A stretch of 64,000 nucleotides of DNA from Candidatus Omnitrophota bacterium (lineage in GTDB: Bacteria; Omnitrophota; Gorgyraeia; Zapsychrales; JBAZNR01), in NCBI GenBank assembly GCA_041649175.1, contig JBAZNR010000001.1:514332-578331 (forward strand). The letters run 5' to 3'. Positions 12,707-57,724 of this stretch are shown here, in pieces. The notes under the pieces were generated by a model, which saw nothing but the letters and a program-made list of their open reading frames with translations, did not search any database and had not been told where the DNA came from. Position 1 is the first letter of the stretch. Each line of letters opens with the position of its first letter. The translations under genes and the position numbers were made by a program.

Positions 12707-12760
12707 AAGGCTCCTTTGCTCCGCCTTTAGGCGGAGCAAAGGAGCCTTTTTCTTTTTCCC
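12707..12760 (+). terminator. Rho-independent terminator after cspA
   Basis: aaaggctcctttgctccgcc-ttta-ggcggagcaaaggagccttt followed by ttttcttttt. Confidence 0.85.
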
Positions 12761-18200: not shown

Positions 18201-21200
18201 AAATTCGGCGTTGAAATTAATTGGGATGCCGAAAAAGCCAGAACCTACGAAGGCTATTATCAATTGAACAAAAAATTGGGGGCAACGTTTGCCGCGGTCA
18301 GACAAAGGATCTTTGCTACCATTGCCGATAGTAGCTGGATGGAACAGGAAAAACCCGACGTCAAACAAGCAAAAATTTTTGTAGATAATGTTAATGCCGA
18401 TCCGAAGGCAAAAGGCGTTCTTTTTTCCATTAATCTTTCACCTTCTTTTAATTGGCTTAATCCGGATAACTGGAAATCGTCATTAACCGCGCAACAAATC
18501 GCCAATGTCAAAAAAGCCATGCAGTTTGGTAATTTTGATTGGAGCAATTGGGAGACATGGCGTGAATATCGTCCGGATGTTATGGCTATGCTTGACGCCA
18601 TTATGGAATTTAGCAGTGAAATGGGCAAGGCAGGTTTTAGTTTCCAATTTGTGACGATCTTTCAAGATCATATCAGCACACTGGCGATGTTTCAGGCTGG
18701 AAAAAGGCTTAAAGAATCCGGTGCCGGCGGTTTTGTTATGGTCGGGCAAGCTGAAGAGCAAAAACACCGTTCTCGTTTCTTAGAACATCAAGCGGCGGCC
18801 GGTGTCAAACGCGTTGGCGCTCAGGATAATTTAGTCGCGCGCGGTTCATCGGCAACGGGTGCGACCGGTAAGGGCGATACCATGGCGCAGTTTCAACCAG
18901 CTACTCCAAAAGCCGACAAAGGCCATGTGGTGACATTAACACCTCCGGAACAAGACAGATTGAACAAGCTTTCGGTTACATTTCCGGTTGACTTAGTCAA
19001 TAAAACAGCCGCGCAATTGACGGCTTTAGGATTACGCGGTGCCTTAAAGCGTGTTAATGATATTTTAAAGAAAGAAGGCGTTGACGCCGAACAAAAGCTT
19101 CTATCGCTTAATCTTCTTTTTTCTGATCTTTATCAAAGAACAGGTAAGGAAGAAATTGAAGCGGTTGTAGCGATGTTAGCCCAAAGACAAATTTCACCAA
19201 ACGCGTCAGAAATTCTCACCAAAGAAGAATTATCCAAGATCAGCCGCGCTATTAAAGATACCGCCGATGCCATGGCTAAACGCATCTTCCAGAAAATTTC
19301 GGAAGACGAAGGCATTATTTTAATGGTACGGGTGAGTGAAGGTTTTGGGCGCGATGAAGTCGCGGAAAGTTTTAAATCCAATGAAGTTATTGTGCCTTTG
19401 AATCTTAAAGGAGAGATCAATCGTATCTATGATGCGGTTGTGACTGGAAGCGATGTTTATCGCTCTGAAACCGACCAAAAAGTATATCCGATCGTTAATG
19501 CTGTTATCGATGTGATCGAAGGAACAAATATGTTCGTGACTAATTCTAACGATCATACGACATCCAGCATCAAGGATTCCGAATCGGGTTCTACCAGCGT
19601 GATCGTGACCGGGCCAGGCGTTGCCAGTTTAGGCAATGCGCCCGACGGTTACGTGGGACAATTTGAAACCAATTTGGGCGACAAGGCCGATGAATTCAAA
19701 CAAATTAAAGTCAGTGTCAAGGGCCAAGACTACGCGCTTTATGATCCCGAGCTTTATGCGGTGGCTCCGGAAATGGTCATTGAATACTTGAAATTTCTAG
19801 CTCGCAGCCGCAATCAATTGTTAAGCGATTTACAAGAAGAAATTGTGGTCATGGATCGTGTCCGCGAAGAAAAACTATTGCAGGCCTTGAAAAGCGCCAA
19901 AGAAACGTTCAATATTCAAGGTTTGAAAGTTACTACCATCAAGGATGGAACGGTGGCTCACGGCCTTAAGGCTTCTATGACGCCGGAAATGTTTAAACAA
20001 GCGACAGGGCAAGAGTATGGTGTTCATAAAACCATGATCACCATTGGCGGTTCGGCGGAAGGGTTTATGAATTTAGCCATCGCCGGTGGATTAAAGGCAA
20101 GCGGTGCTGTCGGAGCTTTACGCATTTATAGCGGTAAGATGAATAAAGACGACGATGGAGTGGAAGTTGATGACCACTCACTGCGTTATAGTTTTTGGTC
20201 TGATGAGATTGAAGATATTGTCATGTTGCGCGATGATGCTCAAGATGTTTTGGGTGGAGAGAAATTATTTACTCAAGCGGATGTTCAAGGTAGCGTGATG
20301 GGAGCTTTTTCGTTTATCAGCACCAACGGTGTTTTTGGCATAGAAGGCGCTACGTCTTCGGAAGAAGGAACAAGCGTCAAAACACTTATTATCAATGCGC
20401 TTGGGTCAACCCCGACTATTTCTATTACACAAACTGAAGTCACTCCCGCCGACCTCGCGATCTTCAGCGATAAAAAAGACGCGGGGCATGTGGTGATGCT
20501 GGAAACCGGAGACAAAACAGCCTTGGTTAGCCGTATTGATCCGGAATTAGGCAATGTTTTTGAAGCGTATGGAGACATTTTAACGCCGCAAGTGGTTCAG
20601 GTTTTAGAAAAAATTGCTCCACTAAGCGAAGAATTATCTGTTTTACGAGAGATCCGTGAAACACGTTATGTGGATCGCCAAATTAATCGTAAGAAAATCG
20701 ATTTCTTATCCGAAACAAATTCCGATGGATCAGATGCCGTTATTCCGGGAACAAATATTACGGTTAAAGATGCCAGAGCGGGAAAATTTGAAGGCGCTCC
20801 TATTCCGGCTGACCTACAGCGTCAATGGATCCAGCTAACCGGCCCCGCCGCTAAATCTCCGCAGGACAAGATCGGATTTTCAAAAGAACAATGGACTGAG
20901 GCTGATTTGCGCAATGTTGCCCATGCTCTTTTAAGCGGAGCGGACGGCATGATGTTCGACGGCGAAGATGCCTTAGGGCAATTGGGCACGATGTCTTTGG
21001 ACAATATTCGCGCTTTAACTTTGGCTTACAAGAAAGACCCGGTTTTCCTAAAAATAGCCGAAGAGGTTGCTAATGAATATATCAAAGCCGGAAAAAGGGA
21101 TGCGAGTTGGAATTGGAGAGAACTGATCGATAATAATTTCACAACCCGCATTTATCGTGTTCGCGGATTGCATTTAGATGACCGGCATACGCAGTTTAAG

Positions 21201-31808: not shown

Positions 31809-33038
31809 ATGCCCGCTGAAAAGAAAACAAAAAAACCTTCAATTAGCCAAGCAGACGAATTAAAACTCTTACGGCGCATTACCGAGATCACCAGCTCTGA
31901 ATTGGACGTCCACAAAGTCCTTGATGAGGTGGTCCGTTTGGTGACTGAAGCCATTGGCGCGGATTCTGTTTTCATTTATCTGATCGATGAAAAGATAAAA
32001 AGTCTCGTTTTAATGGCCTCTAAAACTCCGCACCAGAAAGAGTTAGGAAAGATCAATTTAAAGATCGGAGAAGGAATTGCCGGATGGGTTGCCAAAGAAA
32101 ATAAATTGGTCGCTATCAAGAAAAACGCCTATCAGGATCCTCGTTTCAAAAGTTTTGATATTTTACCGGAAGACCGCTATGAGGCGCTTCTATCGGTTCC
32201 CATTATCTATAAGGGAAAGACCATTGGCGTTATCAATGTTCAGCATCGAAAACCGCATGATTATTTTTTAGGTACGACAAGCTTAATTGAGATCATTGCC
32301 AAACAAGTCGGCGGGGTTATCGAAAATGCTCTCCTCTTTGAACAAACTAAACAAAAAGCCAGCCAATTTGACAGCCTTGCCAAGGTGAGCCGAACGATCA
32401 CCTCCGAACATTATTTGGATGAGATCTTAAACTTGATCGTGGTTGTGACGGCGGAAATGCTCAATTCTAAAATATGTTCCATTATGTTATTGGATAGCAA
32501 AGGCGAAGAATTGGCTATTAAAGCTACTCAAAGCCTCAGTGAAGAATATAAAAAGAAACCCAATATTAAAGTCAATAATAGCTTAAGTGGTGAAGTCATT
32601 AAATCTAAAAAACCGATGTTCTTTGACGATGTCCGCAGTGAAGAAAAATATGTTTATCGTGATCTGGCGGCCAAAGAGAATTTAACATCCATGATCTCGG
32701 TGCCGATGATCGTCAAAGATAAAGCCATCGGCATCATCAATGTGTATACCAAAACTCCGCACCAATTCACCCAGGAAGAAATTGATTGTTTGCAAATGAT
32801 CGCAAATCAAGCGGCTATTGCCGTCGAGAATACAAAATTGATGGAAGAATCTCTCAAGGCCAAAGAAGCCTTGGAAACGCGCAAACTGATCGAGCGCGCC
32901 AAAGGGATTTTAATGCGGATGAATAATTTAGGTGAAGAAGCCGCGCATCGATTGATCCATAAAAAGAGCATGGATTCTTGCCGCTCGATGAAAGAAATTG
33001 CGGAGTCGATCATTCTGGTTTCGGAGTTCAAGAATTAA
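31809..33038 (+). CDS. GAF-GAF-ANTAR RNA-binding antitermination regulator
   Basis: Two GAF domains. C-terminal ANTAR signature ETRKLIERAKGILMRMNNLGEEAAHRLIHKKSMDSCRSMKEIAESII. Confidence 0.8.
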   Translation: MPAEKKTKKPSISQADELKLLRRITEITSSELDVHKVLDEVVRLVTEAIGADSVFIYLIDEKIKSLVLMASKTPHQKELGKINLKIGEGIAGWVAKENKLVAIKKNAYQDPRFKSFDILPEDRYEALLSVPIIYKGKTIGVINVQHRKPHDYFLGTTSLIEIIAKQVGGVIENALLFEQTKQKASQFDSLAKVSRTITSEHYLDEILNLIVVVTAEMLNSKICSIMLLDSKGEELAIKATQSLSEEYKKKPNIKVNNSLSGEVIKSKKPMFFDDVRSEEKYVYRDLAAKENLTSMISVPMIVKDKAIGIINVYTKTPHQFTQEEIDCLQMIANQAAIAVENTKLMEESLKAKEALETRKLIERAKGILMRMNNLGEEAAHRLIHKKSMDSCRSMKEIAESIILVSEFKN

Positions 33039-33064
33039 AATTAAGAGTACCTCAAAAAAAGTTC

Positions 33065-33093
33065 TTGACAAAATCATCAGGCAATCATATACT
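33065..33093 (+). promoter_or_regulatory. Sigma70-like promoter for the amtB-glnK leader (TTGACA-N17-TATACT)
   Basis: Read directly from the sequence. Confidence 0.55.
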
Positions 33094-33123
33094 TCCATTG
33101 TAATTAAGTAGGGCAACGAAGTC

Positions 33124-33158
33124 CTCTTAAGATCGATGCTGGTCTTAAGAGTTTTTTT
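33124..33158 (+). terminator. Leader terminator/attenuator 1 upstream of amtB
   Basis: ctcttaaga-N10-tcttaagag followed by ttttttt. Confidence 0.6.
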
Positions 33159-33223
33159 ATGTGGGCAAAGACGTCCGACAGGTAAGTTTACTCGTCGGAT
33201 TATTTTTTTAAAATGGGCATTGA

Positions 33224-33271
33224 GGCCCTCTTAAAAACCAGCGCTGGTTTTCAAGAGGGCCTTTTTCTTTA
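33224..33271 (+). terminator. Leader terminator/attenuator 2 upstream of amtB
   Basis: ggccctcttaaaaacc-agcgct-ggtttttcaagagggcc followed by tttttcttt. Shares the cctcttaa motif with hairpin 1. Confidence 0.65.
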
Positions 33272-33340
33272 TCGAGACAACGACGTCTTTTTTAGGCCAC
33301 TGGCGGTTAATAGCAGTAAAAACAATTCAAGGAGGATGAA

Positions 33341-34576
33341 ATGGAAATGATCAATGCAGGTGATACAGCGTGGGTTTTGATTTCTTCTGCGCTAGTTATG
33401 TTAATGACACCCGGCCTAGCCTTTTTTTATGGCGGTATGGTCCGGCGCAAAAATGTTTTGAGTATTTTAATGCAGTGCTGTGTTATTTTAGGTTTGATCA
33501 GCGTGCAGTGGGTTTTGTTCGGCTATAGCCTTTCTTTTGCTCCGGGAAAAGGATTTTGGGGCGGTTTTGCATGGGCGGGGCTTAACGGTGTTGGTTTGGA
33601 ACCGTATGCGGATTATGCCGCCACCATTCCTCACCAAGCTTTTATGATCTTTCAAGCAATGTTTGCCATCATCACGCCAGCTCTTATTATCGGTGCTTTT
33701 GCCGAGCGGATGAAGTTCTCGGCGTTTCTCATCTTCATCTTATTGTGGGCTACCTTAGTATATGATCCTATTTGCCATTGGGTTTGGGGCATCGGCGGAT
33801 GGTTGAGAACCATGGGCGCATTGGATTTTGCAGGCGGAACCGTTGTTCATATTAGCGCCGGTATTGCCGCTTTAGCAACAGCCTTAGCTATTGGAAAACG
33901 AAAAGACTTAAACGGCCATGTTCCAGCGCCGCATAATCTTCCCTTTGTTGTTTTGGGAACCGGTTTACTGTGGTTTGGATGGTTTGGGTTTAACGCGGGC
34001 AGTGCTTTGGCGGCTAATGGTTTAGCGGTGAATGCTTTTGTGGTCACTAATACGGCTGCTGCTGCTGCGGGTTTAAGCTGGGCCTTAATTGAATGGATCC
34101 GCGTCGGAAAACCAACTATTTTTGGTTTTTGTTCTGGCGTTGTTGCCGGACTCGTTGCCATCACACCGGCAGCCGGATTTGTTAATGTTATCTCGGCCAT
34201 CATCATCGGCTTATTGGTGAGCGTATTTTGCTATACAGCCGTGGCGATTATCAAACCGAAATTGGGATACGATGATTCTCTAGACGCCTTCGGTGTTCAC
34301 TGCGTTGGCGGGATCTGGGGAGCCTTAGCAACGGGTTTATTTGCCACTAAGTCTATCAATGCGGCTGGGGCAGACGGGTTATTTTATGGTAACCCAGCCC
34401 AGTTTGTCATTCAGCTAAAAGCTGTTTTAATAACCGTTGTCTATAGCTTTGTGGTGAGTTTCGTGATCTACAAGGTTGTGGACTTGGTCGTTGGTATGCG
34501 CGTTAAAGAAGAAGACGAAAATGTCGGTCTTGATCTTACACAGCATCACGAACGGGCTTATACGGTTTTAGAATAA
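33341..34576 (+). CDS. amtB: Ammonium transporter (Amt family)
   Basis: MEMINAGDTAWVLISSALVMLMTPGLAFFYGG..., 11-12 TM. RBS aaggagg. Confidence 0.95.
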   Translation: MEMINAGDTAWVLISSALVMLMTPGLAFFYGGMVRRKNVLSILMQCCVILGLISVQWVLFGYSLSFAPGKGFWGGFAWAGLNGVGLEPYADYAATIPHQAFMIFQAMFAIITPALIIGAFAERMKFSAFLIFILLWATLVYDPICHWVWGIGGWLRTMGALDFAGGTVVHISAGIAALATALAIGKRKDLNGHVPAPHNLPFVVLGTGLLWFGWFGFNAGSALAANGLAVNAFVVTNTAAAAAGLSWALIEWIRVGKPTIFGFCSGVVAGLVAITPAAGFVNVISAIIIGLLVSVFCYTAVAIIKPKLGYDDSLDAFGVHCVGGIWGALATGLFATKSINAAGADGLFYGNPAQFVIQLKAVLITVVYSFVVSFVIYKVVDLVVGMRVKEEDENVGLDLTQHHERAYTVLE

Positions 34577-34658
34577 ATGACGGTGTGCTTTGCGCCGCAA
34601 AAATTGCGGCGCAAAGCACAGTTATTCCATAAATTGCGCACTCATTAAGGAGAAAACT

Positions 34659-35000
34659 ATGAAACTTGTCGTTGCAATTATACAACCACACAAATTAGAG
34701 TCGGTTAAAAAAGCCTTATACGCGGCCGATATTAATTTGATCACGGTTACTGAAGTTTTAGGCCACGGTCAGCAAAAAGGCGTCACCGAAGTTTACCGTG
34801 GTTCTAAAGAGACGGGAAATCTTTTACGAAAGATCCGTATCGAGATCGCCGTCAATGATAACTTTGTCGAACCGACGGTCAAAGCCATCATTAAGGGCGC
34901 TAAGTCGGGAAAGATAGGCGATGGAAAGATCTTTGTTACGTCATTAGAGCGCTGTATCCGTATTAGAACGGAAGAAGAAGGCTCTAAGGCCATCGGGTAA
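34659..35000 (+). CDS. glnK: Nitrogen regulatory protein P-II
   Basis: [20 protein letters not shown]...[10 protein letters not shown] (T-loop region). 113 aa. The ORF track extends further upstream, but the start at 34659 carries an RBS (aaggag). Confidence 0.9.
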
Positions 35001-35169
35001 GTATTTTTAAACCGCTTGGTTTTTCAGAAATCAGGCGGCAAGGGGCGAGGTTAATTCTATTGACGCTGTGCGAAAAGGTTGGTAAGATTTTAGCCTATTA
35101 TTTCGCCGGCGTTAATAGATTTAACTTTTTAACGATCACAAGGATTTTGTCAAAAGGAGGCCGGTTATT

Positions 35170-37353
35170 ATGGGAAAATCAACAAGGCTCCAGGAGATTC
35201 AGGCTTTAGCGAATCTTAACGGAGGAAATTCGTTGGAGGAAAAAATGATTAATGAATTATCTGAAGTAAAGAGTAACCATTCCGTCGCCGATCTTTACGG
35301 CAAAGATGTTTTTAGTCTTAAGGTGATGTGTAATTGTTTGTCAGAAAAGGCTTTTAAATCAATTAGTGCAACCATGAAAGAAGGCGGCCGCCTTGACCCT
35401 ACTATTGCCGATGAAGTTGCTGAGGCAATGAAAAATTGGGCTGTTTCAAAAGGGGCAACACATTTTACGCATTGGTTTCAGCCTTTGACCGGCACTACCG
35501 CCGAAAAACATGATGCCTTTATTGATCCAGATGGAGAAGGCGGAACTGTTCTGAAATTTTCTGGCAAAGAGTTGATCCAAGGTGAGCCCGACGCATCAAG
35601 CTTTCCCTCAGGTGGTTTACGCGCCACATTTGAAGCCCGCGGTTATACAGGCTGGGATCCAACGTCCCCCGCCTTTATTAAAAAAGGGCCGGAAGGTGCC
35701 ACACTTTGTATTCCAACTTTTTATATCGGCTACCATGGCGAAGCGTTAGACAAAAAAACACCTCTCCTTCGTTCCATGACAGCTCTTTCAAAACAAGTTT
35801 GTCGTCTGGCGAATTTGTTTGGCATTGAGATTAAAGGGAAACGTGCTTATTGCACGCTTGGCCCCGAACAGGAATATTTTCTAATCGATAAAAATCATTA
35901 TGAAGCTCGTATTGATTTAGTTCAGACCGGCCGCACACTTTTTGGTTCCAAACCGGCCAAACATCAACAACAAGAAGATCATTATTTTGGCGCCGTTAAA
36001 CCGCGCGTGATGGCTTTCATGGAAGACTTGGACCGCACATTATGGGGTTTAGGTATTCCTTCCAAAACACGCCACAACGAAGTTGCTCCCGCGCAATATG
36101 AAATGGCTCCGATCTTTGAAGATCTTAACGTCGGCGTTGATCACAATATGATTGCGATGGAAGTGATGCGCCAACTGGCTGACAAACACGGCTTGGTTTG
36201 TTTGTTGCACGAAAAACCTTTTGCCGGTATTAATGGCTCTGGAAAACATAATAACTGGTCTATTGTTGGCCCCGATGGAAAGAATTGGCTCTATCCTGGT
36301 AAAACACCGCACGATAATGCAAAATTTTTAACCCTGCTCTGTGCGGTTATTAAAGCTGTCGATACGTATGCTGATCTTTTGCGCGTCACGGTTGCTTCTG
36401 CCGGTAACGATCATCGTCTGGGTGCTAACGAAGCGCCGCCGGCGATTGTTTCAATTTTCTTAGGCGATCAATTGACGGATATCATTGAGCAGATCGAAAA
36501 GGGCGGCGCCAAAACATCCAAACAAGGAAGCGCTATTAACATCGGCGTTGATTCTATGCCAAACCTTGCCAAAGATACAACGGATCGTAATCGTACATCA
36601 CCTTTTGCATTTACGGGTGCGAAATTCGAATTCCGCGCGGTTGGTTCCAATATGAACCCTTCCGCCGCCAACATGGTTTTAAATACCATTGTGGCCGAAG
36701 CAATTAGTGATATCTGCAATGAACTCGAAACAGCCAAAAAATCCGGTAAGGATTTTAACGCTTCTTTGCAAAAAATTCTGCAAAGCATTATCAAAAATCA
36801 CAAACGTGTTCTCTATAATGGCGATAACTATGTTCCGGAATGGCATGCTGAAGCTAAAAAACGCGGGCTGCCGAATTTCAAATCGACCCCGGAAGCTCTG
36901 GAAGCCATCAAACTCAAAAAGAACATCGCGGTTTTGGTGAAGCATGGCGTTTTGAGCGAAAAAGAACTTGCGTCGCGTTATGAAATTAACAAACACGCTT
37001 ATGCAACGGTGATTGACCTCGAGGGAAATTGCGCGCTTTCAATGGCCCGTACGCAATTAATTCCTGCGGCGGTTGAATATCAAAAAGAGCTCTCCGAAAC
37101 GATTAAGACCGTCGGAGCAAGCGGCAAAACCACATCCCAGAAAAAGGTTTTAAAAACCATTTCCGGGTTGATTGACGAAGCCTTTGCAACTTGCGATACG
37201 TTGGAAGCGGCAATTCATAAACATGATTCTGCCAAAACCAACGCGGCGATGGTTGAGCTTCGTGAATCCATTGATGCGCTGGAAGGTTTTGTCCCGAGCA
37301 ATATCTGGCCGGTACCGTCCTACGCAGAAATGCTTCTGATGAATGCGCTTTAA
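35170..37353 (+). CDS. glnN: Glutamine synthetase type III
   Basis: At 727 aa the length and architecture are typical of GSIII. Catalytic-domain-like blocks are present (e.g. FGIEIKGKRAYCTLGPEQEYFLID). Confidence 0.8.
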   Translation: MGKSTRLQEIQALANLNGGNSLEEKMINELSEVKSNHSVADLYGKDVFSLKVMCNCLSEKAFKSISATMKEGGRLDPTIADEVAEAMKNWAVSKGATHFTHWFQPLTGTTAEKHDAFIDPDGEGGTVLKFSGKELIQGEPDASSFPSGGLRATFEARGYTGWDPTSPAFIKKGPEGATLCIPTFYIGYHGEALDKKTPLLRSMTALSKQVCRLANLFGIEIKGKRAYCTLGPEQEYFLIDKNHYEARIDLVQTGRTLFGSKPAKHQQQEDHYFGAVKPRVMAFMEDLDRTLWGLGIPSKTRHNEVAPAQYEMAPIFEDLNVGVDHNMIAMEVMRQLADKHGLVCLLHEKPFAGINGSGKHNNWSIVGPDGKNWLYPGKTPHDNAKFLTLLCAVIKAVDTYADLLRVTVASAGNDHRLGANEAPPAIVSIFLGDQLTDIIEQIEKGGAKTSKQGSAINIGVDSMPNLAKDTTDRNRTSPFAFTGAKFEFRAVGSNMNPSAANMVLNTIVAEAISDICNELETAKKSGKDFNASLQKILQSIIKNHKRVLYNGDNYVPEWHAEAKKRGLPNFKSTPEALEAIKLKKNIAVLVKHGVLSEKELASRYEINKHAYATVIDLEGNCALSMARTQLIPAAVEYQKELSETIKTVGASGKTTSQKKVLKTISGLIDEAFATCDTLEAAIHKHDSAKTNAAMVELRESIDALEGFVPSNIWPVPSYAEMLLMNAL

Positions 37354-37383
37354 TTAGCGCTTTACGCAGTTATTAAAAGCGAA

Positions 37384-37416
37384 GGGAAAAGGGGCGCGAA
37401 CCGCGCCCCTTTTCCC
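37384..37416 (+). terminator. Terminator-like hairpin after glnN
   Basis: gggaaaaggggcgcg-aacc-gcgccccttttccc. Confidence 0.55.
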
Positions 37417-37449
37417 TAGTCAATATTTACAATAGGTAGTATAATCCTT

Positions 37450-38139
37450 ATGATTTTGATCATTAAACATATTGCTGTGGAAGGGCCGGGGACCATTGCG
37501 TCGTTCTTTCAAAAGAAGAAAACACTAAAAACAATTGAGCTTAGCGCTGGCGATCCGTTACCTCGCGACCTAAAAGGCGTTGAGGCCGTGATCGTCATGG
37601 GCGGCCCGATGAATGTTGACGAAGAAGACAAATATCCGTTTCTTAGAGATGAAAATATTTTTATCCAGAACGTCTTAAAGAAAGAAATTCCGTATTTGGG
37701 TATTTGTTTGGGAAGTCAGCTTTTAGCCAAGGCCTCCGGAGCGAAAGTTGCCAAGTCACCGGTAGAAGAGATTGGCTGGTTTAAGGTTTCTTTAGAGAAA
37801 GATCCGATCTTTGAGAATTTAGAAAACAATATTGATGTTTTTCAGTGGCATGGGGATACATTCGATATTCCCAAGAGTGGAAAACTTTTAGCGACGGCCA
37901 CCGGATGCCATCATCAAGCGCTAAAAGTAGGAACAAATGCTTACGGACTTCAATTTCATGTTGAAGTAACGGGCAGGATCATTGATAGCTGGATAAAAGC
38001 ACATTTTAAAGGCGACACGCGAAAACAAAAATCAGAAGAAATGATAAGCACTTATTTAAAACTCAAAAGTGCTTTTAATAGAAATGCAGAAACTGTGTAC
38101 CAGAATTTTGAAAAGATTATTGAGCAAAGTAAGCAGTAA
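37450..38139 (+). CDS. Class I glutamine amidotransferase-like protein
   Basis: GATase1 triad context: GICLGSQLL (Cys nucleophile) and ...LQFHVEV (His). Confidence 0.7.
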   Translation: MILIIKHIAVEGPGTIASFFQKKKTLKTIELSAGDPLPRDLKGVEAVIVMGGPMNVDEEDKYPFLRDENIFIQNVLKKEIPYLGICLGSQLLAKASGAKVAKSPVEEIGWFKVSLEKDPIFENLENNIDVFQWHGDTFDIPKSGKLLATATGCHHQALKVGTNAYGLQFHVEVTGRIIDSWIKAHFKGDTRKQKSEEMISTYLKLKSAFNRNAETVYQNFEKIIEQSKQ

Positions 38140-38174
38140 GTAAAATTTTTTTAAATGAATCTGCCTAAAGATTA

Positions 38175-38228
38175 GGCAAATTCTTCTGCCTCTTTATATT
38201 CTTTCTTGACTCGCAGAAGAATTTGCCT
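38175..38228 (+). promoter_or_regulatory. 15-bp perfect inverted repeat (GGCAAATTCTTCTGC ... GCAGAAGAATTTGCC) upstream of nadE
   Basis: Seen directly. A 22-nt loop contains ttgact. Candidate operator or RNA element. Confidence 0.3.
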
Positions 38229-38278
38229 CGCTGTCACATTCTGGAAGAATGTAGCGGGGCATAATTAAGAAGAGTCCC

Positions 38279-39895
38279 ATGATACGCATCGCCTTAGCGC
38301 AAATCAATCCTACCGTCGGTGATCTTAAGGGAAATGCCTTAAAGATCATTGATTTTATCCGAAAGGCTCAAGCAGCTAACGCGGATATTGTCGCCTTTCC
38401 GGAATTAGCCGTTTGCGGTTATCCGCCGGAAGATCTGCTTTTAAAAGAACATTTCATCAGCGAAAATATCAAAACTCTTAAAGACATCGCTGCCCATGCA
38501 AAAAAAATTTCCGTGATCGTTGGTTTTGTAGATAGGGATAAAAAGAAGAATATTTATAATGCCGCGGCTTTACTTTCCGATAGGCGCATCAAAGGAATTT
38601 ATCATAAAGAACAGCTTCCCAATTACGGTGTTTTTGACGAAAAAAGATATTTTACGGCAGGCACAAAAAATCCTATTTTTAGCGTTAAGGGAATAAAATT
38701 TGCCGTCAATATTTGTGAGGATATTTGGCTTGAAACGGGGCCGCATAAAACTCAAGTTAAAAAAGGCGCTAAATTTCTTATCAATATCTCTTCATCACCG
38801 TATCACGCGGGAAAACTGCACGAGCGCCAGGCGCTTTTAAAAACCAGAGCCAATCAGGTGAAAGCGCCCATTTTTTATGTGAATATCGTTGGAGGGCAGG
38901 ACGAACTTGTCTTTGACGGCGCTAGCATGATCTTTGATAAAAAAGGAAAAACCATTGCCGCCGGAAAACAATTTGAAGAGGATATGATCTTTGCGGATAT
39001 TCCTTTGGACGCGCAAACTAAAAATAAATCACCACGGCCATTAGGGGAAATCGAAGAAATTTATAAAGCGCTAACTTTAGGTACGCGTGATTATATCCGT
39101 AAAAACGGATTTAAAAAGGTAACCATTGGTTTAAGCGGAGGCATTGATTCCGCGCTGGTCGCGGCGATTGCCGTTGATGCTGTTGGTCAAGAAAATGTCA
39201 CGGCTGTTTCCATGCCGTCGCAGTATTCGTCTTTAGAAACGATCAGTGACGCGCGTAAAATAGCCAAAAATCTGGGAATAAGATTCTTAGAAATTCCCAT
39301 CATGAAGGTTTTTTCTGTCTTTTTAGAAACATTGGATCATGAATTTAAGGGACAAGCCAAAGACATTACCGAAGAAAACCTTCAAGCGCGCATTCGCGGC
39401 AATATTTTAATGGCTTTCTCTAATAAATTCGGCTGGCTGGTTTTAACGACGGGCAATAAAAGCGAAATTGCCACGGGGTATTGCACGCTTTACGGCGATA
39501 TGGCGGGAGGTTTCGCGGTCATTAAAGATGTTCCTAAAACAACCGTGTACAAATTAGCCAAGTATCGTAATTCTTTGAATTCCAATGCCGTTATTATGCA
39601 AAGCATTATTGACCGCGCTCCGACGGCAGAATTGCGGGAAAATCAAAAAGACCAAGATACACTTCCCGAATATGATCTTTTGGATAAAATTTTAAGCGAT
39701 TATGTGGAAGCGGACAAAAGTTTAAGCGATATCAATAAAAAGATCAATAACGCAAAAGTCATTAAAGATGTGATGCGTTTAGTGGACCGAAGCGAGTATA
39801 AACGCCGCCAGGCTCCGCCGGGTGTTAAGATTACGCCAAGAGCTTTTGGCCGGGATCGGCGATTTCCTATCGTCAATCAATACCGTGAGTTTTAA
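38279..39895 (+). CDS. nadE: Glutamine-dependent NAD+ synthetase (nitrilase domain plus NAD synthetase domain)
   Basis: N-terminal CN-hydrolase domain (MIRIALAQINPTVGD...ICED) and a C-terminal PP-loop SGGIDSALVAA. Confidence 0.9.
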   Translation: MIRIALAQINPTVGDLKGNALKIIDFIRKAQAANADIVAFPELAVCGYPPEDLLLKEHFISENIKTLKDIAAHAKKISVIVGFVDRDKKKNIYNAAALLSDRRIKGIYHKEQLPNYGVFDEKRYFTAGTKNPIFSVKGIKFAVNICEDIWLETGPHKTQVKKGAKFLINISSSPYHAGKLHERQALLKTRANQVKAPIFYVNIVGGQDELVFDGASMIFDKKGKTIAAGKQFEEDMIFADIPLDAQTKNKSPRPLGEIEEIYKALTLGTRDYIRKNGFKKVTIGLSGGIDSALVAAIAVDAVGQENVTAVSMPSQYSSLETISDARKIAKNLGIRFLEIPIMKVFSVFLETLDHEFKGQAKDITEENLQARIRGNILMAFSNKFGWLVLTTGNKSEIATGYCTLYGDMAGGFAVIKDVPKTTVYKLAKYRNSLNSNAVIMQSIIDRAPTAELRENQKDQDTLPEYDLLDKILSDYVEADKSLSDINKKINNAKVIKDVMRLVDRSEYKRRQAPPGVKITPRAFGRDRRFPIVNQYREF

Positions 39896-39968
39896 GCATA
39901 TTTCTTAAACTCCGACGAGAGAAGAGATTTTTAGGCAGTTTATCCGACGAAAAAAATGTGATTTTCAG

Positions 39969-39996
39969 TTGAACAATCGCGAAAAATAGATACAAT
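39969..39996 (+). promoter_or_regulatory. Sigma70-like promoter (TTGAAC-N16-TACAAT) upstream of the fis-like gene and gltBD
   Basis: Read directly. Confidence 0.45.
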
Positions 39997-40012
39997 TGGA
40001 GAGATTATTCTT

Positions 40013-40231
40013 ATGACAACGGATACCATTAATCAATATTTCTCAACGGTGCAAAGCGGACAGATCTACCGTTGCGTTATCGAAACGACCGAAAAAATGC
40101 TGATCGAAAAAGCGTTGGCACAATCATCCGGTAATCAACTGATCGCGGCCAGGATCTTGGGGCTCAACCGTAATACATTACGTACCAAAATAAAAAAGCT
40201 TAAAATTGATTTTCGGGGATTCAAACTATGA
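40013..40231 (+). CDS. Stand-alone Fis-family (NtrC C-terminal-like) HTH DNA-binding protein, 72 aa
   Basis: ...IEKALAQSSGNQLIAARILGLNRNTLRTKIKKLKI matches the Fis/NtrC HTH_8 motif. The stop overlaps the gltB start (ATGA). Confidence 0.6.
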   Translation: MTTDTINQYFSTVQSGQIYRCVIETTEKMLIEKALAQSSGNQLIAARILGLNRNTLRTKIKKLKIDFRGFKL

Positions 40232-43200
40232 AAGCACAAGGCCTTTACGATCCTTTTTTTGAACACGACAGCTGCGGGGTAGGGTTTGTCGTGAATATGA
40301 AAGGAAAAAAATCTCATAAGATCATCCAAGATGCTCTTCAGATATTGGAGAATTTAGGGCATCGCGGAGCTTGCGGCTGTGATCCTAAAACCGGGGACGG
40401 GGCGGGTATCAACATTCAAATTTCCGACGCTTTCTTTCGAAAAGAATGTTCCAAAAATCACATCACCCTTCCTAAAGAAGGCGATTATGCCGTCGGGATG
40501 CATTTTATGCCCACCAATTCTACCGAACGGGATACCATCGAAAAATGGATGGGCAACATTATCCGCGATGAAGGGCAGAAATTTTTAGGCTGGAGAGGGG
40601 TTCCTCACGACGGTTCTGTTATTGGGGAAGTGGCGCGCTCAGGCAAACCGGAATTCAGACAGCTTTTTATCGGCCGCGGCGCGGATACGCCTGCCGAACG
40701 ATTTGATATTAAATTGCATGTTATCCGAAAAAGGCTTTATCAAAAGATCAGACAATCCGAGCTTGCCCAAAAAGGCTATTACTACCTTTGCAGTTTGTCG
40801 ACGAAAACCATCGTCTACAAAGGCCAGCTGATGGCAAATCAGTTAAAGCAATTTTTCCCTGACTTAAATGATCCCGCCATGGTCTCTGCGTTAGCCATGG
40901 TCCATTCGCGTTACAGCACTAATACGTTTCCGTCATGGGCCTTGGCTCATCCGTACCGTTTTATCTGTCACAACGGCGAAATTAATACATTGCGCGGTAA
41001 CATTAACTGGATGCATGCGCGTGAACATCAATTTTCTTCTAAGCTTTTAGGAAGTGACCTGCAGAAAATATTTCCGATCGTTATTCCTCTGCGTAGTGAT
41101 AGCGCCACGTTTGATAATGCGCTAGAAATGCTGGTCTTAGCCGGACGCTCTTTGCCGCATGCCGTTATGATGATGATCCCCGAGGCATGGAGCGGACATG
41201 AGTCTATGGATGAGGAAAAAAAAGCTTTTTATGAGTATCATTCCTGTTTGATGGAACCCTGGGACGGGCCGGCATCGATTGCTTTTACCGACGGGCGTTA
41301 CATCGGCGCTGTTTTGGATAGAAATGGGCTTCGTCCTTCCAGATATTTAGTCACCAAGGATGATGTTGTTATTATGGCTTCCGAAACGGGCGTGTTGCCT
41401 ATTGCTCCGGAAAATGTTTCCAGAAAAGGGCGTTTGCAACCGGGAAAAATGTTCCTTATTGATACTCAAGAAGGCCGCATCATTGACGATAAGGAACTCA
41501 AACATTTCTATGCTACCCGAAAACCTTACGGTCAATGGCTTAAAGAAAATTTAATTCATCTTAAAGAATTGCCGGAACCAAAAAAAGTTTTTGGCCTTGA
41601 TGAAAAAACGCTGGTGGAGCGCCAGAAGGTGTTCGGTTATACATTGGAAGATTTGAAAATGATCTTGCCTCCTATGGTGACCAACGGCGAAGAAGCGACG
41701 GGTTCTATGGGCGCGGATAATCCCTTGGCGGTTCTCTCAGACCGGTCTCAGCCTTTATTTAATTATTTTAAACAACTCTTTGCGCAGGTCACTAATCCGC
41801 CGATCGATGCTATCCGCGAAGAGATCGTCATGTCCGAAGATGTCTTTTTGGGCGCCGAAGGAAATCTTCTGGAAGAAACTTCCGAACATTGCCGACGGCT
41901 TAAATTATCACATCCGGTCGTGACCAATAGAGAGTTGGAAAAAATCCGTCAGGTCCACAAGCCCGGGCTTAAAGCGACGACATTGCCGATCCTTTTTAAA
42001 TCTGGTGATGGGACCGGCGGCCTTGAAAAATCCTTAAGCGAACTTTTTTCTGCTGCTGATGCGGCCATCAAAAAAGGTTTTACGATCCTTATCTTGTCCG
42101 ATCGTGGTGTTAATCGTGACAATGTTCCCATACCGTCTTTGCTGGCGTGCTCTGGGCTTCATCATCACTTAGTCCGTCAAGGAACGCGCACCAAGGTTAG
42201 CTTGGTTCTGGAAACCGGTGAGGCGCACGAGATGCACCATTTTGCGGTTTTGATCGGCTACGGCGCTAATGCCATCAATCCTTATCTTGTTTTAGAAACG
42301 ATCGCAAGCGAGATTAAAAAAGGTGTTTTACCATCTGATCTATCTTATGACCGGGCCGCCAAGAATTTTATTAAAAGTACGCGTAAAGGATTGTTCAAGA
42401 TCATTTCCAAGATGGGTATTTCTACCATTCAATCTTATTGCGGGGCGCAGATCTTTGAGGCGGTGGGTTTAGGGCAGGAATTGATCGATAAATATTTTAC
42501 CGCCACACCTTCACGGATCGGCGGCATTGACATCAAGATCATCGCCGAAGAAATGTTGCGCCGCCACGCCCAAGCCTATCCGGCTTTAGGCGATATGGAA
42601 AAGATCCTTGATCCCGGCGGAGATTATCAGTGGCGTCAAGACGGTGAATATCATCAATATAATCCGGAAACAATTCCTTTATTGCAATTTGCGGTTCGAA
42701 GCGGCCGGTATGAAACTTATAAACAATATGCCAAGATCATCAATGACCGAAATAAGAATTTAGCCAATATTCGCGGGCTTTTGAAATTTAAAAAAGGAAA
42801 CCCTATTCCCTTATCGGAAGTGGAACCGGCTTCTGAAATTGTAAAACGTTTTGCGACAGGTGCTATGTCGTATGGTTCTATTTCTAAAGAAACGCATGAG
42901 ACGCTGGCCATTGCCATGAACCGTTTAGGCGGATTTTCCAATACGGGAGAAGGCGGCGAAGATGCCGAACGTTTTAAACCCGATGCCAACGGAGATTTGC
43001 GCCGAAGCCGCATTAAACAAGTTGCGCAAGGCCGGTTCGGCGTTACCATTGAATATTTAGTGAACGGCGATCAGTTGCAGATCAAAATGGCGCAAGGCGC
43101 TAAACCCGGTGAGGGCGGACAACTTCCTGGACATAAAGTGAGCGAAGAGATCGCCCGCACCCGCTACACAATGCCCGGCGTGCAGCTCATTTCTCCGCCG

Positions 43201-44766
43201 CCGCATCATGATATTTATTCTATTGAAGATTTGGCGCAACTGATCCATGATCTGAAAAATGCAAACTCAAAAGCTGATATTAGCGTCAAGCTTGTCTCTG
43301 AAGTTGGCGTGGGAACAGTGGCGGCCGGTGTGGCCAAGGGTAAATCCGACCATGTTCTTATCAGTGGTTATGAGGGCGGAACGGGAGCGAGCCCGCAGAC
43401 GTCTATTAAACATGCCGGGCTTCCTATGGAATTAGGCATTGCCGAAACCCAGCAAGTTTTAGTCATGAATGATCTGCGCGGGCGTATCCGCGTTCAGACC
43501 GACGGCCAGCTTAAAACCGGCCGTGATGTGGCGGTGGTTGCTATGTTGGGTGCTGATGAATTTGGTTTTTCAACATTGGCACTCATTTCTTTAGGGTGCG
43601 TTATGCTTCGCAAATGCCATTTGAATACATGTTCCGTCGGTATCGCGACTCAAGATCCGGAACTTCGAAAGAATTTTACCGGAAAGCCTGAATACGTGAC
43701 CAATCTCTTTACCTTCATTGCCGAAGAATGCCGTGAGATCATGGCTGAGCTCGGGTTTAGAAAGTTCGATGATATGGTTGGGTGCGTGGACATGTTGGAA
43801 ACTAAAGAAGCCATCGATCATTGGAAAGCCAAAGGCCTCGATCTAACCTATGTGCTGCACAAGCCCGATGTGCCGGCGCATGTGGCGATTCGTCATACCA
43901 GCCGGCAAGATCATGATTTAGCGGGTGCTTTAGACCATGAGCTTATTAAACTTTGCAAAGACGCTATCGAACATAAAAAAGCGGTGAAATTAGAAATACC
44001 GATCAAAAATGTCAATCGTACCGTCGGGACGATGCTGTCCAGTGAAATCGCGCGGCGTTATAATCTGGCAGGGCTTGCGGATGATACGATCAAAATTAAA
44101 TTTACCGGTTCCGCCGGACAAAGTTTCGGCGCCTTTTTGGCTCATGGCGTTACGCTGACTTTGGAAGGTGACTCCAATGATTATATCGGAAAGGGTTTAT
44201 CCGGTGGAAAGATCATTGTTTATCCGTCCAAATCCGCCACGTTTATTCCGGAAGAAAATATTTTAGTCGGCAATGTGGTTTTGTATGGCGCGGTGATGGG
44301 TGAGGCTTATTTTCGCGGGCTGGCCGGAGAACGGTTTGCGGTTCGAAACAGCGGTGCGTGGGCTGTGGTGGAAGGCATGGGCGATCATGGATGTGAATAT
44401 ATGACCGGCGGACGTGTGGTGGTTTTAGGCCCGACGGGGCGAAATTTTGCCGCCGGGATGAGCGGAGGCATCGCCTATGTTTGGGATAAAGATAAAACGT
44501 TTAGGAATCGTTGTAATTTAAACATGGTGGAGCTTTTTCCGGTCCAGATAGAATCCGATATTGCTGAATTAAAGACATTGATAGAAAATCATGCGCGTTA
44601 TACGCAAAGCTCGGTTGCTGAATTTGTTTTAAAGAATTGGAATGCAGTTTTGCCGCAATTCGTCAAAGTGTATCCGAACGATTACCGTCGTGTTTTAGAA
44701 GAAGCCGCTAAAGTTTTGGAAGTCAAAGAGGAAGATTTGGAAAAAGAAGTAATGTCGGATATGTAA
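40228..44766 (+). CDS. gltB: Glutamate synthase large subunit
   Basis: Ntn amidotransferase N-terminus (Cys after Met: ...FEHDSCGVGFV), FMN-binding domain and C-terminal GXGXG domain. 1512 aa. Confidence 0.95.
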   Translation: MKAQGLYDPFFEHDSCGVGFVVNMKGKKSHKIIQDALQILENLGHRGACGCDPKTGDGAGINIQISDAFFRKECSKNHITLPKEGDYAVGMHFMPTNSTERDTIEKWMGNIIRDEGQKFLGWRGVPHDGSVIGEVARSGKPEFRQLFIGRGADTPAERFDIKLHVIRKRLYQKIRQSELAQKGYYYLCSLSTKTIVYKGQLMANQLKQFFPDLNDPAMVSALAMVHSRYSTNTFPSWALAHPYRFICHNGEINTLRGNINWMHAREHQFSSKLLGSDLQKIFPIVIPLRSDSATFDNALEMLVLAGRSLPHAVMMMIPEAWSGHESMDEEKKAFYEYHSCLMEPWDGPASIAFTDGRYIGAVLDRNGLRPSRYLVTKDDVVIMASETGVLPIAPENVSRKGRLQPGKMFLIDTQEGRIIDDKELKHFYATRKPYGQWLKENLIHLKELPEPKKVFGLDEKTLVERQKVFGYTLEDLKMILPPMVTNGEEATGSMGADNPLAVLSDRSQPLFNYFKQLFAQVTNPPIDAIREEIVMSEDVFLGAEGNLLEETSEHCRRLKLSHPVVTNRELEKIRQVHKPGLKATTLPILFKSGDGTGGLEKSLSELFSAADAAIKKGFTILILSDRGVNRDNVPIPSLLACSGLHHHLVRQGTRTKVSLVLETGEAHEMHHFAVLIGYGANAINPYLVLETIASEIKKGVLPSDLSYDRAAKNFIKSTRKGLFKIISKMGISTIQSYCGAQIFEAVGLGQELIDKYFTATPSRIGGIDIKIIAEEMLRRHAQAYPALGDMEKILDPGGDYQWRQDGEYHQYNPETIPLLQFAVRSGRYETYKQYAKIINDRNKNLANIRGLLKFKKGNPIPLSEVEPASEIVKRFATGAMSYGSISKETHETLAIAMNRLGGFSNTGEGGEDAERFKPDANGDLRRSRIKQVAQGRFGVTIEYLVNGDQLQIKMAQGAKPGEGGQLPGHKVSEEIARTRYTMPGVQLISPPPHHDIYSIEDLAQLIHDLKNANSKADISVKLVSEVGVGTVAAGVAKGKSDHVLISGYEGGTGASPQTSIKHAGLPMELGIAETQQVLVMNDLRGRIRVQTDGQLKTGRDVAVVAMLGADEFGFSTLALISLGCVMLRKCHLNTCSVGIATQDPELRKNFTGKPEYVTNLFTFIAEECREIMAELGFRKFDDMVGCVDMLETKEAIDHWKAKGLDLTYVLHKPDVPAHVAIRHTSRQDHDLAGALDHELIKLCKDAIEHKKAVKLEIPIKNVNRTVGTMLSSEIARRYNLAGLADDTIKIKFTGSAGQSFGAFLAHGVTLTLEGDSNDYIGKGLSGGKIIVYPSKSATFIPEENILVGNVVLYGAVMGEAYFRGLAGERFAVRNSGAWAVVEGMGDHGCEYMTGGRVVVLGPTGRNFAAGMSGGIAYVWDKDKTFRNRCNLNMVELFPVQIESDIAELKTLIENHARYTQSSVAEFVLKNWNAVLPQFVKVYPNDYRRVLEEAAKVLEVKEEDLEKEVMSDM

Positions 44767-44858
44767 AAGGGGAAGTATTTCGCCCCCATAGTTTTGTTTA
44801 AAGAAACAAACAAAACTAAGCATGGGGGTAATGCCAGATATTTAAGAGGGAAAGCATT

Positions 44859-46298: not shown

Positions 46299-46320
46299 TA
46301 GAAAAGAAAAAGATTTTTAG

Positions 46321-46367
46321 AAGGCCCATCCGCCAAAATGTTTGGCGGATGGGCCTTATTATTTTCT
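46321..46367 (+). terminator. Rho-independent terminator after gltD
   Basis: aaggcccatccgccaaa-atg-tttggcggatgggcctt followed by attattttct. Confidence 0.8.
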
Positions 46368-46536
46368 GAACGGTTGACAAAAAATAATCGCAAGAGTATA
46401 TTGCCCTTTATTGGGGCAATGACGTCCCGGTAAGTTTTCTCTATTTATAGGGCAATGAAGTTCTATAAATTGTTTTGGTTTGGATAAAGGACAAAGAAGT
46501 TCTTTAGAAACAGCTCAATGATGAGGAGGATGTTCC

Positions 46537-48203: not shown

Positions 48204-48246
48204 AGGCGCCCCGCCAAAAATTGGCGGGGCGCCTTTTTGATTTTTT
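48204..48246 (+). terminator. Rho-independent terminator
   Basis: aggcgccccgccaaaaattggcggggcgcct followed by ttttgatttttt. Confidence 0.85.
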
Positions 48247-57640: not shown

Positions 57641-57724
57641 GCGCGGGTGGCGGAATTGGTATACGCGCACGTTTGAGGGGCGTGTGGGGCAACCCGTGAG
57701 AGTTCAAGTCTCTCCCCGCGCATT
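57641..57724 (+). tRNA. tRNA-Leu (anticodon GAG) with long variable arm
   Basis: Acceptor gcgcggg/cccgcgc, anticodon loop ttGAGgg, a long extra arm and T-loop gttcaagtc. Confidence 0.8.

Follow-up and report, generated by a model that had tools for sequence, protein, structure and literature searches.

The locus described here raises the question of how the genes for ammonium uptake are switched on in a member of the Omnitrophota. In a 64,000-nucleotide stretch of Candidatus Omnitrophota bacterium DNA (GenBank assembly GCA_041649175.1, contig JBAZNR010000001.1, positions 514,332 to 578,331; hereafter the window), a gene coding for a protein with two GAF domains and an ANTAR domain is located directly upstream of the ammonium transporter gene amtB and the P-II gene glnK. 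A preliminary description of the sequence had recognized in this region the layout expected for ANTAR-mediated antitermination and had proposed a search for ANTAR hexaloop hairpins overlapping the 5′ arms of the leader terminators. Such hairpins are present. Three of them have A1/G4 hexaloops and share their 3′ arms with the bases of three serial terminators, a covariance model derived from other genomes recovers them, and the same arrangement recurs beside homologous regulators. These results support the proposed layout and suggest, with a probability of roughly 0.78, that nitrogen assimilation is switched at this locus by transcription attenuation through a one-component system of the ANTAR type. 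The coordinates of all features are compiled in Table 1.

Hexaloop hairpins and serial terminators in the amtB leader

The promoter between the regulator gene and amtB is the best in 3.8 kb and begins 26 bases 3′ of the regulator stop codon, at the position given in the preliminary description (33065). From the predicted transcription start to the amtB start codon at 33341, the leader measures about 240 nt, close to the previous estimate of about 250 nt. It contains three intrinsic terminators, T1, T2 and T3, each of which folds better than 200 out of 200 shuffled sequences. T1 and T3 correspond to the two strong terminators described before (33124..33158 and 33224..33271), and the cctcttaa motif that these were said to share was found at 33123-33130 and 33227-33234. 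T3 was also detected as an inverted repeat (I1) with 95% complementarity. The hairpin reported at about 33174..33210 is real as well, but its supposed weakness was an error, T2 being about as strong as T1 (-12.8 and -13.4 kcal/mol). A fourth hairpin with a U run, proposed at 33285-33304, dissolved into the 3′ arm of hairpin H4 (see below) and a T run and is not a separate terminator.

For the hexaloop scan we required an A at position 1 and a G at position 4 of the loop, the signature of the NasR, AmiR and EutV substrates (PMC3369931). Four hairpins in the leader, H1 to H4, carry this A1/G4 hexaloop on stems of 4-5 bp, where ANTAR-target hairpins have at least 3 bp. They are spaced by 52, 52 and 60 nt and were detected as a diverged direct repeat by a gap-free repeat finder; Tandem Repeats Finder reported no array. 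The pattern GRCANNGANGYY matched the window 13 times, compared with 2.48 expected matches, and none of 100 shuffled sequences reached this number. Seven of the 13 matches fall into two leaders, that of amtB and a second one described below, and the others lie inside open reading frames (ORFs) or antisense. One of the latter group, at 12557 within the ORF of a cold-shock protein, was regarded as a chance match. A fifth leader hairpin (GGCC-ACUGGC-GGUU, 33295-33308) was discarded as weak; it contains two G-C and two G-U pairs, obtained no score from the covariance model, and its pairing with H4 across a 5-nt linker is doubtful.

The 3′ arms of the first three hairpins and the 5′ arms of the terminators have nucleotides in common, two in H1/T1 (33124-33125), five in H2/T2 (33173-33177) and six in H3/T3 (33223-33228). 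The 5′ arm of T2 holds the entire 3′ arm of H2. H1 to H3 and T1 to T3 are thus mutually exclusive, as is characteristic of ANTAR targets and their intrinsic terminators. T1 and T3 are in addition capped by apical hexaloop hairpins, which are separated from H1 and H3 by linkers of 4 and 6 nt, respectively; the range known from the eut leaders is 5-12 nt.

A simple terminator scan of the window was not significant (5 found versus 4.5 expected), and it missed T2 and T3 because of their internal mismatches. A looser scan returned 78 terminator-like hairpins on both strands, which is too permissive to serve as background. It is the folding energies, the clustered arrangement and the accompanying hexaloop motif that make the leader significant; the terminator scan alone does not. 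Other genes in the window also end in terminators of this hairpin-plus-U style (e.g. at 12709-12746, 37391-37409 and 48205-48233), and the organism therefore appears to use intrinsic termination.

Two further observations concern the leader sequence. Behind the hexaloop hairpin, the same sequence GUCCUCUU...AAGAGGA(C)UUUU is often found, both in the window (e.g. 33121-33130 and 33225-33234) and in relatives. The terminator base is conserved in sequence and not in structure alone, and the 3′ arm of the terminator comes to resemble a Shine-Dalgarno sequence. The modules may be duplicates of common descent, or the sequence may serve as an additional recognition element. Furthermore, TTAAGAGTACCTC, located between the regulator stop codon and the promoter (33041-33053), is 85% complementary to GAAGTCCTCTTAA (33118-33130), which comprises the 3′ half of H1 and the 5′ arm of T1. 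It could mask T1 in read-through transcripts from the regulator gene, or may equally be due to chance in AT-rich sequence.

Domain composition of the regulator

Pfam matched GAF models twice and the ANTAR model once in the regulator, in agreement with the GAF-GAF-ANTAR gene ending at 33038 that had been described before. The protein is 100% identical to an Omnitrophota MAG entry at NCBI. The ANTAR match (PF03861) reached 72.2 bits at a cut-off of 27.3, residues 351-402 corresponding to profile positions 3-54 of 54. In a phmmer comparison with the Protein Data Bank, the domain aligned to EutV (6wsh), Rv1626 (1s8n) and NasR (4akk, E=2e-7). When the positions and roles of EutV residues were taken from the EutV-RNA structure (PMC8934654), the RNA-contacting residues R142, K143, K149 and E160 as well as the Met172 'plug' were identical in the alignment, and K147 is conservatively replaced by Arg. 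Tyr164, which stacks on G4 of the loop, is a His; Tyr or His occupies this position across 120 homologues. N173 corresponds to Asp. Taken together, these positions retain the base-specific core and show variable backbone contacts; the latter vary in Rv1626 and NasR, too. A Response_reg (REC) domain, as present in response regulators of the GnfR/EutV type, was not found by Pfam in the regulator, nor was an AAA+ domain.

The sensory part, which the preliminary description had summarized as GAF sensing, can be narrowed to two different types of GAF domain. GAF1 aligned end to end with GAF structures of PtsP/EI-Ntr (3ci6, E=5e-24, and E=2e-23 in a further comparison; 3trc, E=7e-17) and matched the NCBIfam PtsP model of E. 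coli (E=4e-39, profile positions 3-168 of 748). This match covers the GAF part only and its 134 bits compare with a cut-off of 583, which places the regulator outside the PtsP/EI-Ntr family. GAF2 together with the linker resembled the N-terminus of the NCBIfam NifA model (E=5e-27, profile positions 2-214 of 534), again with a score below the cut-off (95 versus 529 bits) and thus outside the NifA/sigma-54 enhancer-binding family. The ligand of the NifA GAF domain is 2-oxoglutarate. As judged from these alignments, the kinship of the regulator to PtsP and NifA is at the domain level only. EI-Ntr binds glutamine with its GAF domain (PMC4848567). Because GAF1 is of this PtsP/EI-Ntr-like, glutamine-binding type and GAF2 is NifA-like, the regulator may read the nitrogen status directly via its GAF domains and would be active when nitrogen is limiting. 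The close likeness of GAF1 to the glutamine-binding domain makes glutamine or 2-oxoglutarate a candidate switch of RNA binding.

Proposed mechanism

Because the hexaloop mini-hairpins have little stability (-4 to -6 kcal/mol) in comparison with the strong terminators, termination should be the default state. A leader RNA would be started at the constitutive sigma-70 promoter at 33065 and would end at one of T1, T2 and T3, which are arranged in series. Just 5′ of each terminator, a weak ANNGAN-hexaloop mini-hairpin is predicted whose 3′ arm (GUCC/GCCC) is at the same time the first strand of the terminator stem. The active GAF-GAF-ANTAR protein, its activity probably set by nitrogen status through the GAF domains, would bind the hexaloop as an ANTAR dimer and stabilize the mini-hairpin. 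In modules 1 and 3, the dimer may also bind the second hexaloop at the terminator apex. The bottom base pairs beside the U tract would then be withheld and RNA polymerase would read on. Transcription of amtB-glnK would require that all three modules are overridden, and such serial gates are expected to lower the leak to a very low level and to sharpen the response. Single-hairpin modules such as H2/T2 appear plausible because, according to the EutV-RNA structure of 2022, one hexaloop suffices as a minimal ANTAR site (PMC8934654).

Conservation of the module and alternative explanations

Relatives of the regulator were collected from 38 loci. These comprise Omnitrophota metagenome-assembled genomes (MAGs) at 66-77% identity, some of which are labelled Planctomycetales in the records, one Clostridia MAG (51%) and a divergent Omnitrophota locus, L038 (53%). 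In about 20 of the 38 loci, a TTGACA...TATAcT promoter and a leader containing these hairpins come after the regulator gene, the extended box cTTGACAaa...TATAcT being found upstream of leaders in relatives as well. The genes 3′ of these leaders are amtB-glnK, in some cases extended by the type III glutamine synthetase gene (GSIII), GSIII itself, the glutamine synthetase gene GSI, and genes for NirB-type nitrite reductase, NadE and glutamate-synthase-related proteins. In a search of 1.84 billion representatives, giant multi-GAF proteins predominated; besides them, a few clusters of full-length proteins (about 400 aa) were seen at 42-52% identity.

Hexaloop hairpins occurred in 14 of 14 regulator-to-amtB intergenic regions examined. 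Six of these 14 contain two or three automatically detected fused terminators in series, and three are present in the window, L003 and L115. In orthologous modules, the overlap logic is kept while the body of the terminator either changes completely, as in T3 compared with GCCCCGACAAUAAAUGUCGGGGC in L002, or differs only by substitutions that preserve pairing. The latter applies to T1, whose orthologue in L002 carries a canonical AAUGAC hexaloop at the apex. An apical second hexaloop is found in about a quarter to a half of the modules of relatives. Apical ANNGNN hexaloops were counted in 7 of 30 fused terminators versus 9 of 300 control hairpins. A classical upstream P1 hairpin is present in L007, L010, L013, L017 and L031.

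We defined fusion as a following hairpin that begins inside the 3′ arm of the hexaloop hairpin and ends at most 2 nt from a U run. Across all loci, this definition applied to 30 of 91 pattern matches but only to 62 of 3000 random positions (33% versus 2%). Such systematic sharing of an arm with the terminator base points to antitermination in cis. It thereby argues against a reading in which the short terminated leader RNAs (about 55, 105 and 165 nt, with 2-5 hexaloops) mainly titrate the ANTAR protein as a decoy in the manner of EutX or Rli55, so that feedback or buffering would act instead of, or besides, a serial gate. Several properties of the leader would suit a decoy: the 6-7 hexaloops outnumber the three terminators, some hairpins are without a terminator (H4 and the last 'orphan' hairpins before amtB in L002 and L003), a strong constitutive promoter would yield abundant short RNAs, and sequestration by small RNAs with a single hexaloop has been discussed (PMC8934654). 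Decoy action is, however, unnecessary to explain the layout, and we consider it unlikely.

The position of the regulator gene bears on a second alternative, namely that the modules are real but operated by another ANTAR protein encoded elsewhere, for instance a REC-ANTAR protein like GnfR or NasT, and that the adjacent protein has other targets. The window is a 64-kb section of a contig that spans at least 1.2 Mb, a REC-ANTAR protein whose gene lies far from the targets recognizes this type of hairpin in Geobacter (PMC2995071), and ANTAR domains are described as not specialised between architectures (PMC7496416). Yet the regulator gene stands directly 5′ of the motif-bearing leader in the roughly 20 of 38 loci mentioned above, and this adjacency holds across Omnitrophota and in the Clostridia MAG at 51% identity. 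It also emerged when the search started from the RNA. A metagenome scan with GGGCANNGANGTCCTCTT gave at least 120 matches; among the matches listed, nearly all were coding-sequence coincidences and only two, L051 and L115, were canonical fused modules. Both are located just 3′ of a regulator homologue (66-67% identical), the former upstream of GSIII-NadE-GltB and the latter, with three modules, upstream of amtB-glnK. No second ANTAR gene besides that of the regulator was found within the window. Control by a distant ANTAR protein instead of the adjacent one is hence improbable, slightly more so than a decoy function.

The stems themselves were analyzed in an alignment of 42 hairpins, all from other genomes and none from the window. 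At the outer stem pair one, AU occurred 20 times, CG five times, GC three times and UA twice, and at the outer stem pair two GC 26 times, AU seven times, CG once and UA once; neither pair was constrained by the search pattern. The covariation score of 0.40 compares with 0.24 in shuffles, was reached by none of 500 shuffles and collapsed when the partner column was slid. As in known ANTAR targets, the stems are supported by covariation and occur in genomes that encode an ANTAR protein, the regulator gene being adjacent in the window as well as in relatives. The window was then searched, filters off, with a covariance model (R1) derived from the same alignment. The eight best matches were, in this order, H1, the hairpin at 46446, H3, those at 46410 and 46485 (E=0.008 for the latter), H2, a coding-sequence coincidence (E=0.11) and H4. 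Seven of the eight thus lie within about 350 nt of leader, out of 128 kb on both strands.

Three of these matches define a second putative leader (46376-46536), preceded by its own promoter and located upstream of an ORF with a Glu_synthase domain. Its hexaloops lie in 46405-46510. The first two hairpins, A and B, have stems of 10-11 bp followed by U-rich tails, so that the hexaloop caps a terminator-like stem. In L038, a homologue of the Glu_synthase-domain gene is found directly 3′ of the regulator gene. The minimum-free-energy fold of the second leader pairs UCUCU (46437-46441) with the Shine-Dalgarno sequence.

These data bear on the idea that T1 to T3 are constitutive insulators, tandem terminators that end the regulator transcript and resemble hexaloop targets incidentally. 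The three terminators lie 86-230 nt past the regulator stop codon with no other terminator between, and the generic terminator scan was not enriched. A near-consensus promoter conserved in relatives separates the stop codon from T1, the motif is about five-fold enriched over shuffles, the stems covary and R1, an independent model, recovers the hairpins. Moreover, the same module precedes nitrogen genes that do not adjoin the regulator, at 46405-46510 in the window and before glutamine synthetase genes in L007, L010 and L031. The insulator explanation is strongly disfavoured.

Comparison of 32900-35300 with Rfam at E values up to 10 yielded no match at threshold; the best one, rli56, had 22.9 bits against a cut-off of 47 (E=0.95), and the matches (rli56, freshwater-2 and fragments of long non-coding RNAs) are noise, with no ANTAR-target model, riboswitch or known leader family among them. 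Attenuation without a protein, by a riboswitch for a metabolite or by translation of a leader peptide, is least probable of all. Glutamine riboswitches do occur 5′ of nitrogen genes in other phyla, and the leader has room for small ORFs (ATG 33159, 8 codons; ATG 33213, 45 codons). Yet no Rfam family rose above noise, and the ORFs, which lack a Shine-Dalgarno sequence, are conserved neither in L002 nor in other relatives.

Strength and scope of the proposed switch

Several points weigh against the attenuation switch proposed here. On the RNA side, the pattern used to select the comparative hairpins fixes three stem pairs, which leaves the outer pairs and the independent model search as the only tests. 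The overlap of H1 and T1 is just 2 nt long, and stabilization of H1 alone may not defeat T1. The apical loop of T1 has a G instead of an A at position 1, and H2 is without a partner hexaloop in the linker range of 5-12 nt that EutV needs. In the second leader (46405-46510), no competition between hairpins and terminators is evident, and the simple model offers no explanation for it. On the protein side, three backbone contacts of EutV are not kept in the regulator, where R168 corresponds to His, R175 to Cys and R177 to Ser. GAF2 also resembles GAF domains that bind cyclic nucleotides (5w10, E=5e-10), and the assignment of GAF domains to ligands is based on domain similarity alone. Finally, no member of the GAF-GAF-ANTAR group is known to have been characterized experimentally. 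GAF-ANTAR proteins are catalogued, but the reviews of 2020 and 2025 contain no characterized one, and the term 'GAF-ANTAR' was found in the full-text literature in one passing mention only.

It is well supported that the locus represents a new example of a known mechanism with variant features, which are the GAF-GAF sensor, terminators with nested hexaloops and the triple gate. The general picture remains unchanged, as ANTAR control of nitrogen genes including amtB and glnK has been known or predicted since 2010-2012. What the locus adds is a testable assignment of regulator, RNA and signal for nitrogen control in the Omnitrophota, a candidate phylum without genetics, and likewise for the GAF-ANTAR class, which is still uncharacterized in reviews. 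The nested-hexaloop terminators and the three serial gates would lend themselves to examining the 'successive binding' model of ANTAR proteins and the dose-response of serial attenuators, and R1 could be used to annotate nitrogen regulons in MAGs.

A wider proposal is tentative, and we think it less likely than not: GAF-GAF-ANTAR proteins might be master nitrogen regulators of Omnitrophota and some Clostridia, a single polypeptide reading glutamine and/or 2-oxoglutarate directly by means of its PtsP-like and NifA-like GAF domains and controlling the whole assimilation regulon after initiation of transcription. If this were true, the regulon would include amtB-glnK, the genes for glutamine synthetase, glutamate-synthase-like genes, NirB and NadE. 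A terminator that nests the second hexaloop at its apex and competes with the first hairpin, and up to three such gates in series giving a switch-like response, would then be undescribed in the ANTAR literature compared here.

Comparison with known ANTAR systems

The closest parallel in terms of targets is GnfR of Geobacter, a REC-ANTAR protein that binds CAGGCAANGGCGCC, a GGC-AANGGC-GCC hairpin located 5′ of terminators in the nifH, glnK and amtB leaders (PMC2995071). Both systems share the targets amtB and glnK, the type of hexaloop hairpin that overlaps a hairpin-plus-U terminator and read-through under nitrogen limitation, which is presumed for the locus described here. In contrast to GnfR, a response regulator that is phosphorylated, has a separate kinase, depends on sigma-54 and has its gene at a distance from the targets, the Omnitrophota protein has two GAF domains in the same polypeptide, its gene lies beside the target, the promoter is sigma-70-like and three modules are arranged in series.

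Dual-hexaloop ANTAR targets are known from EutV and the eut leaders of Enterococcus faecalis (Ramesh 2012, PMC3369931; Walshe 2022, PMC8934654). Common to both systems are A1/G4 hexaloops on short stems whose closing pair is conserved, an intrinsic terminator as competing structure and a dimeric ANTAR domain in which the Met 'plug' and basic contacts are conserved. The geometry is different. In the eut leaders, P1 lies upstream as a free 'recruitment' hairpin, and it is P2, at the 5′ base of the terminator, that the terminator excludes. In the amtB leader it is the first, 5′ hairpin that is excluded, while the second hexaloop, if present (T1, T3), forms the apex of the terminator and is compatible with it. 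The signals differ as well, EutV responding to ethanolamine via a kinase and the regulator described here presumably to a nitrogen metabolite via its GAF domains.

The preliminary description had referred to the NasR/AmiR paradigm. This holds for the competition between hexaloop and terminator, although the geometry departs from that of textbook EutV as outlined above. NasR of Klebsiella, a NIT-ANTAR protein, is likewise a one-component sensor with an ANTAR domain, encoded beside its target operon and acting on a hexaloop hairpin before a leader terminator. Its sensor is a NIT domain for nitrate, and AmiR of Pseudomonas has a pseudo-receiver that works with AmiC, whereas two GAF domains are found here. 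NasR and AmiR furthermore control single attenuators for nitrate assimilation or amidase, in contrast to the amtB-glnK and glutamine synthetase/glutamate synthase genes of the Omnitrophota.

ANTAR RNAs have been predicted 5′ of genes for P-II, ammonium transporters, glutamine synthetase, glutamate synthase and nitrite reductase, including 13 attenuators in six transcription units of D. acetoxidans (Ramesh 2012, PMC3369931). These regulons, predicted in Desulfotomaculum, Pelobacter and others, resemble the present one by their nitrogen-gene targets and by several attenuators per organism. They differ in being predictions in Firmicutes and Deltaproteobacteria whose cognate regulators and sensor domains were unassigned, with Omnitrophota outside the coverage. 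N-terminal GAF domains that read the nitrogen status are known from PtsP (EI-Ntr) and NifA; unlike these proteins, the regulator has neither a phosphoenolpyruvate-utilising phosphotransferase domain nor an AAA+/sigma-54 activator domain.

Genomic context and further observations

Table 1. Location of the regulator, leader elements and neighbouring genes in the window (positions count from the first nucleotide of the 64,000-nucleotide stretch; aa, amino acids; HTH, helix-turn-helix)
Feature	Position	Strand	Remarks
Regulator gene, GAF-GAF-ANTAR	31809..33038	+	409 aa; Pfam GAF_2/GAF/GAF_3 matched twice, and ANTAR
GAF1	~31857-32330	+	residues 17-174
GAF2	~32415-32828	+	residues 203-340
ANTAR domain	32859-33014	+	residues 351-402
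Sigma-70-type promoter TTGACA-17-TATACT	33065..33093	+	11/12 consensus positions
Predicted transcription start	~33100	+	
H1, AGGGC-AACGAA-GUCCU	33110-33125	+	-5.0 kcal/mol; R1 23.8 bits, E=0.0012, top match in window
T1, 12-bp terminator	33124-33151 + U7 (to 33158)	+	-13.4 kcal/mol, z -6.2
T1 apex hairpin AGAUC-GAUGCU-GGUCU	33130-33145	+	hexaloop G1/G4
H2, UGGGC-AAAGAC-GUCCG	33162-33177	+	-4.9 kcal/mol; R1 E=0.055
T2, GUCCGAC...GUCGGAU	33173-33200 + UUAUUUUUUU (to 33209)	+	-12.8 kcal/mol, z -4.0; detected as fused terminator
H3, GGGC-AUUGAG-GCCC	33215-33228	+	-6.0 kcal/mol; R1 E=0.002
T3, 20-nt arms	33223-33262 + UUUUUCUU (to 33269)	+	-25.7 kcal/mol, z -5.7
T3 apex hairpin AAACC-AGCGCU-GGUUU	33235-33250	+	hexaloop A1/G4
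H4, GAGAC-AACGAC-GUCUU, then U run (to 33294)	33274-33289	+	5 bp, -4.2 kcal/mol; R1 E=0.3
Shine-Dalgarno AGGAGG	33330-33335	+	
amtB	33341-34576	+	Pfam Ammonium_transp E=1e-133
glnK (P-II gene)	34662-35000	+	Pfam P-II E=1e-25
GSIII (type III glutamine synthetase)	35170-37353		Pfam
Class-I glutamine amidotransferase	37450-38139		
Glutamine-dependent NAD synthetase	38279-39895		
Small Fis-like HTH ORF	40013-40228		
gltB	40228-44766		
gltD	44859-46298		
Second putative leader, promoter TTGACA-17-TATATT	46376..46536	+	5′ of Glu_synthase-domain ORF 46537-48177
Second-leader hexaloop hairpin AAUGAC	46411-46430	+	R1 E=0.0046
Second-leader hexaloop hairpin AAUGAA	46444-46471	+	R1 E=0.0018
Second-leader hexaloop hairpin AAAGAA	46484-46505	+	R1 E=0.0082
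Glu_synthase-domain ORF	46537-48177	+	546 aa; Pfam
Single ORF	15270-24122		2950 aa

Pfam assigned the two genes downstream of the leader to Ammonium_transp and P-II, as expected from the preliminary description, which had named them amtB and glnK. Further 3′, a nitrogen-assimilation cluster extends from 35170 to 48177, up to the glutamate-synthase-like gene. Within this cluster, hexaloop hairpins precede only the latter gene; in several relatives, a module is located directly before GSIII or GSI. Several relatives (L007, L010, L017 and L031) have, past the last terminator and ahead of amtB, a short hydrophobic ORF of some 35-45 codons that carries its own Shine-Dalgarno sequence; the window lacks this ORF.

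The spacer of 85 nt between amtB and glnK contains a perfect GC-rich hairpin of 16 bp at 34584-34620, GTGCTTTGCGCCGCAA-AAA-TTGCGGCGCAAAGCAC. It has no U tract on either strand and may be an element of mRNA processing or stability. A match of the Rfam family 'freshwater-2' to this hairpin (E=3.2) was dismissed as noise. Elsewhere in the window, the 3′ end of a tRNA-Leu(GAG) gene (57641-57722), GTCTCTCCCCGCGCATTGATTT, is repeated about 110 nt downstream (57823-57845), and the duplicate looks like an att site left by an integrating element.

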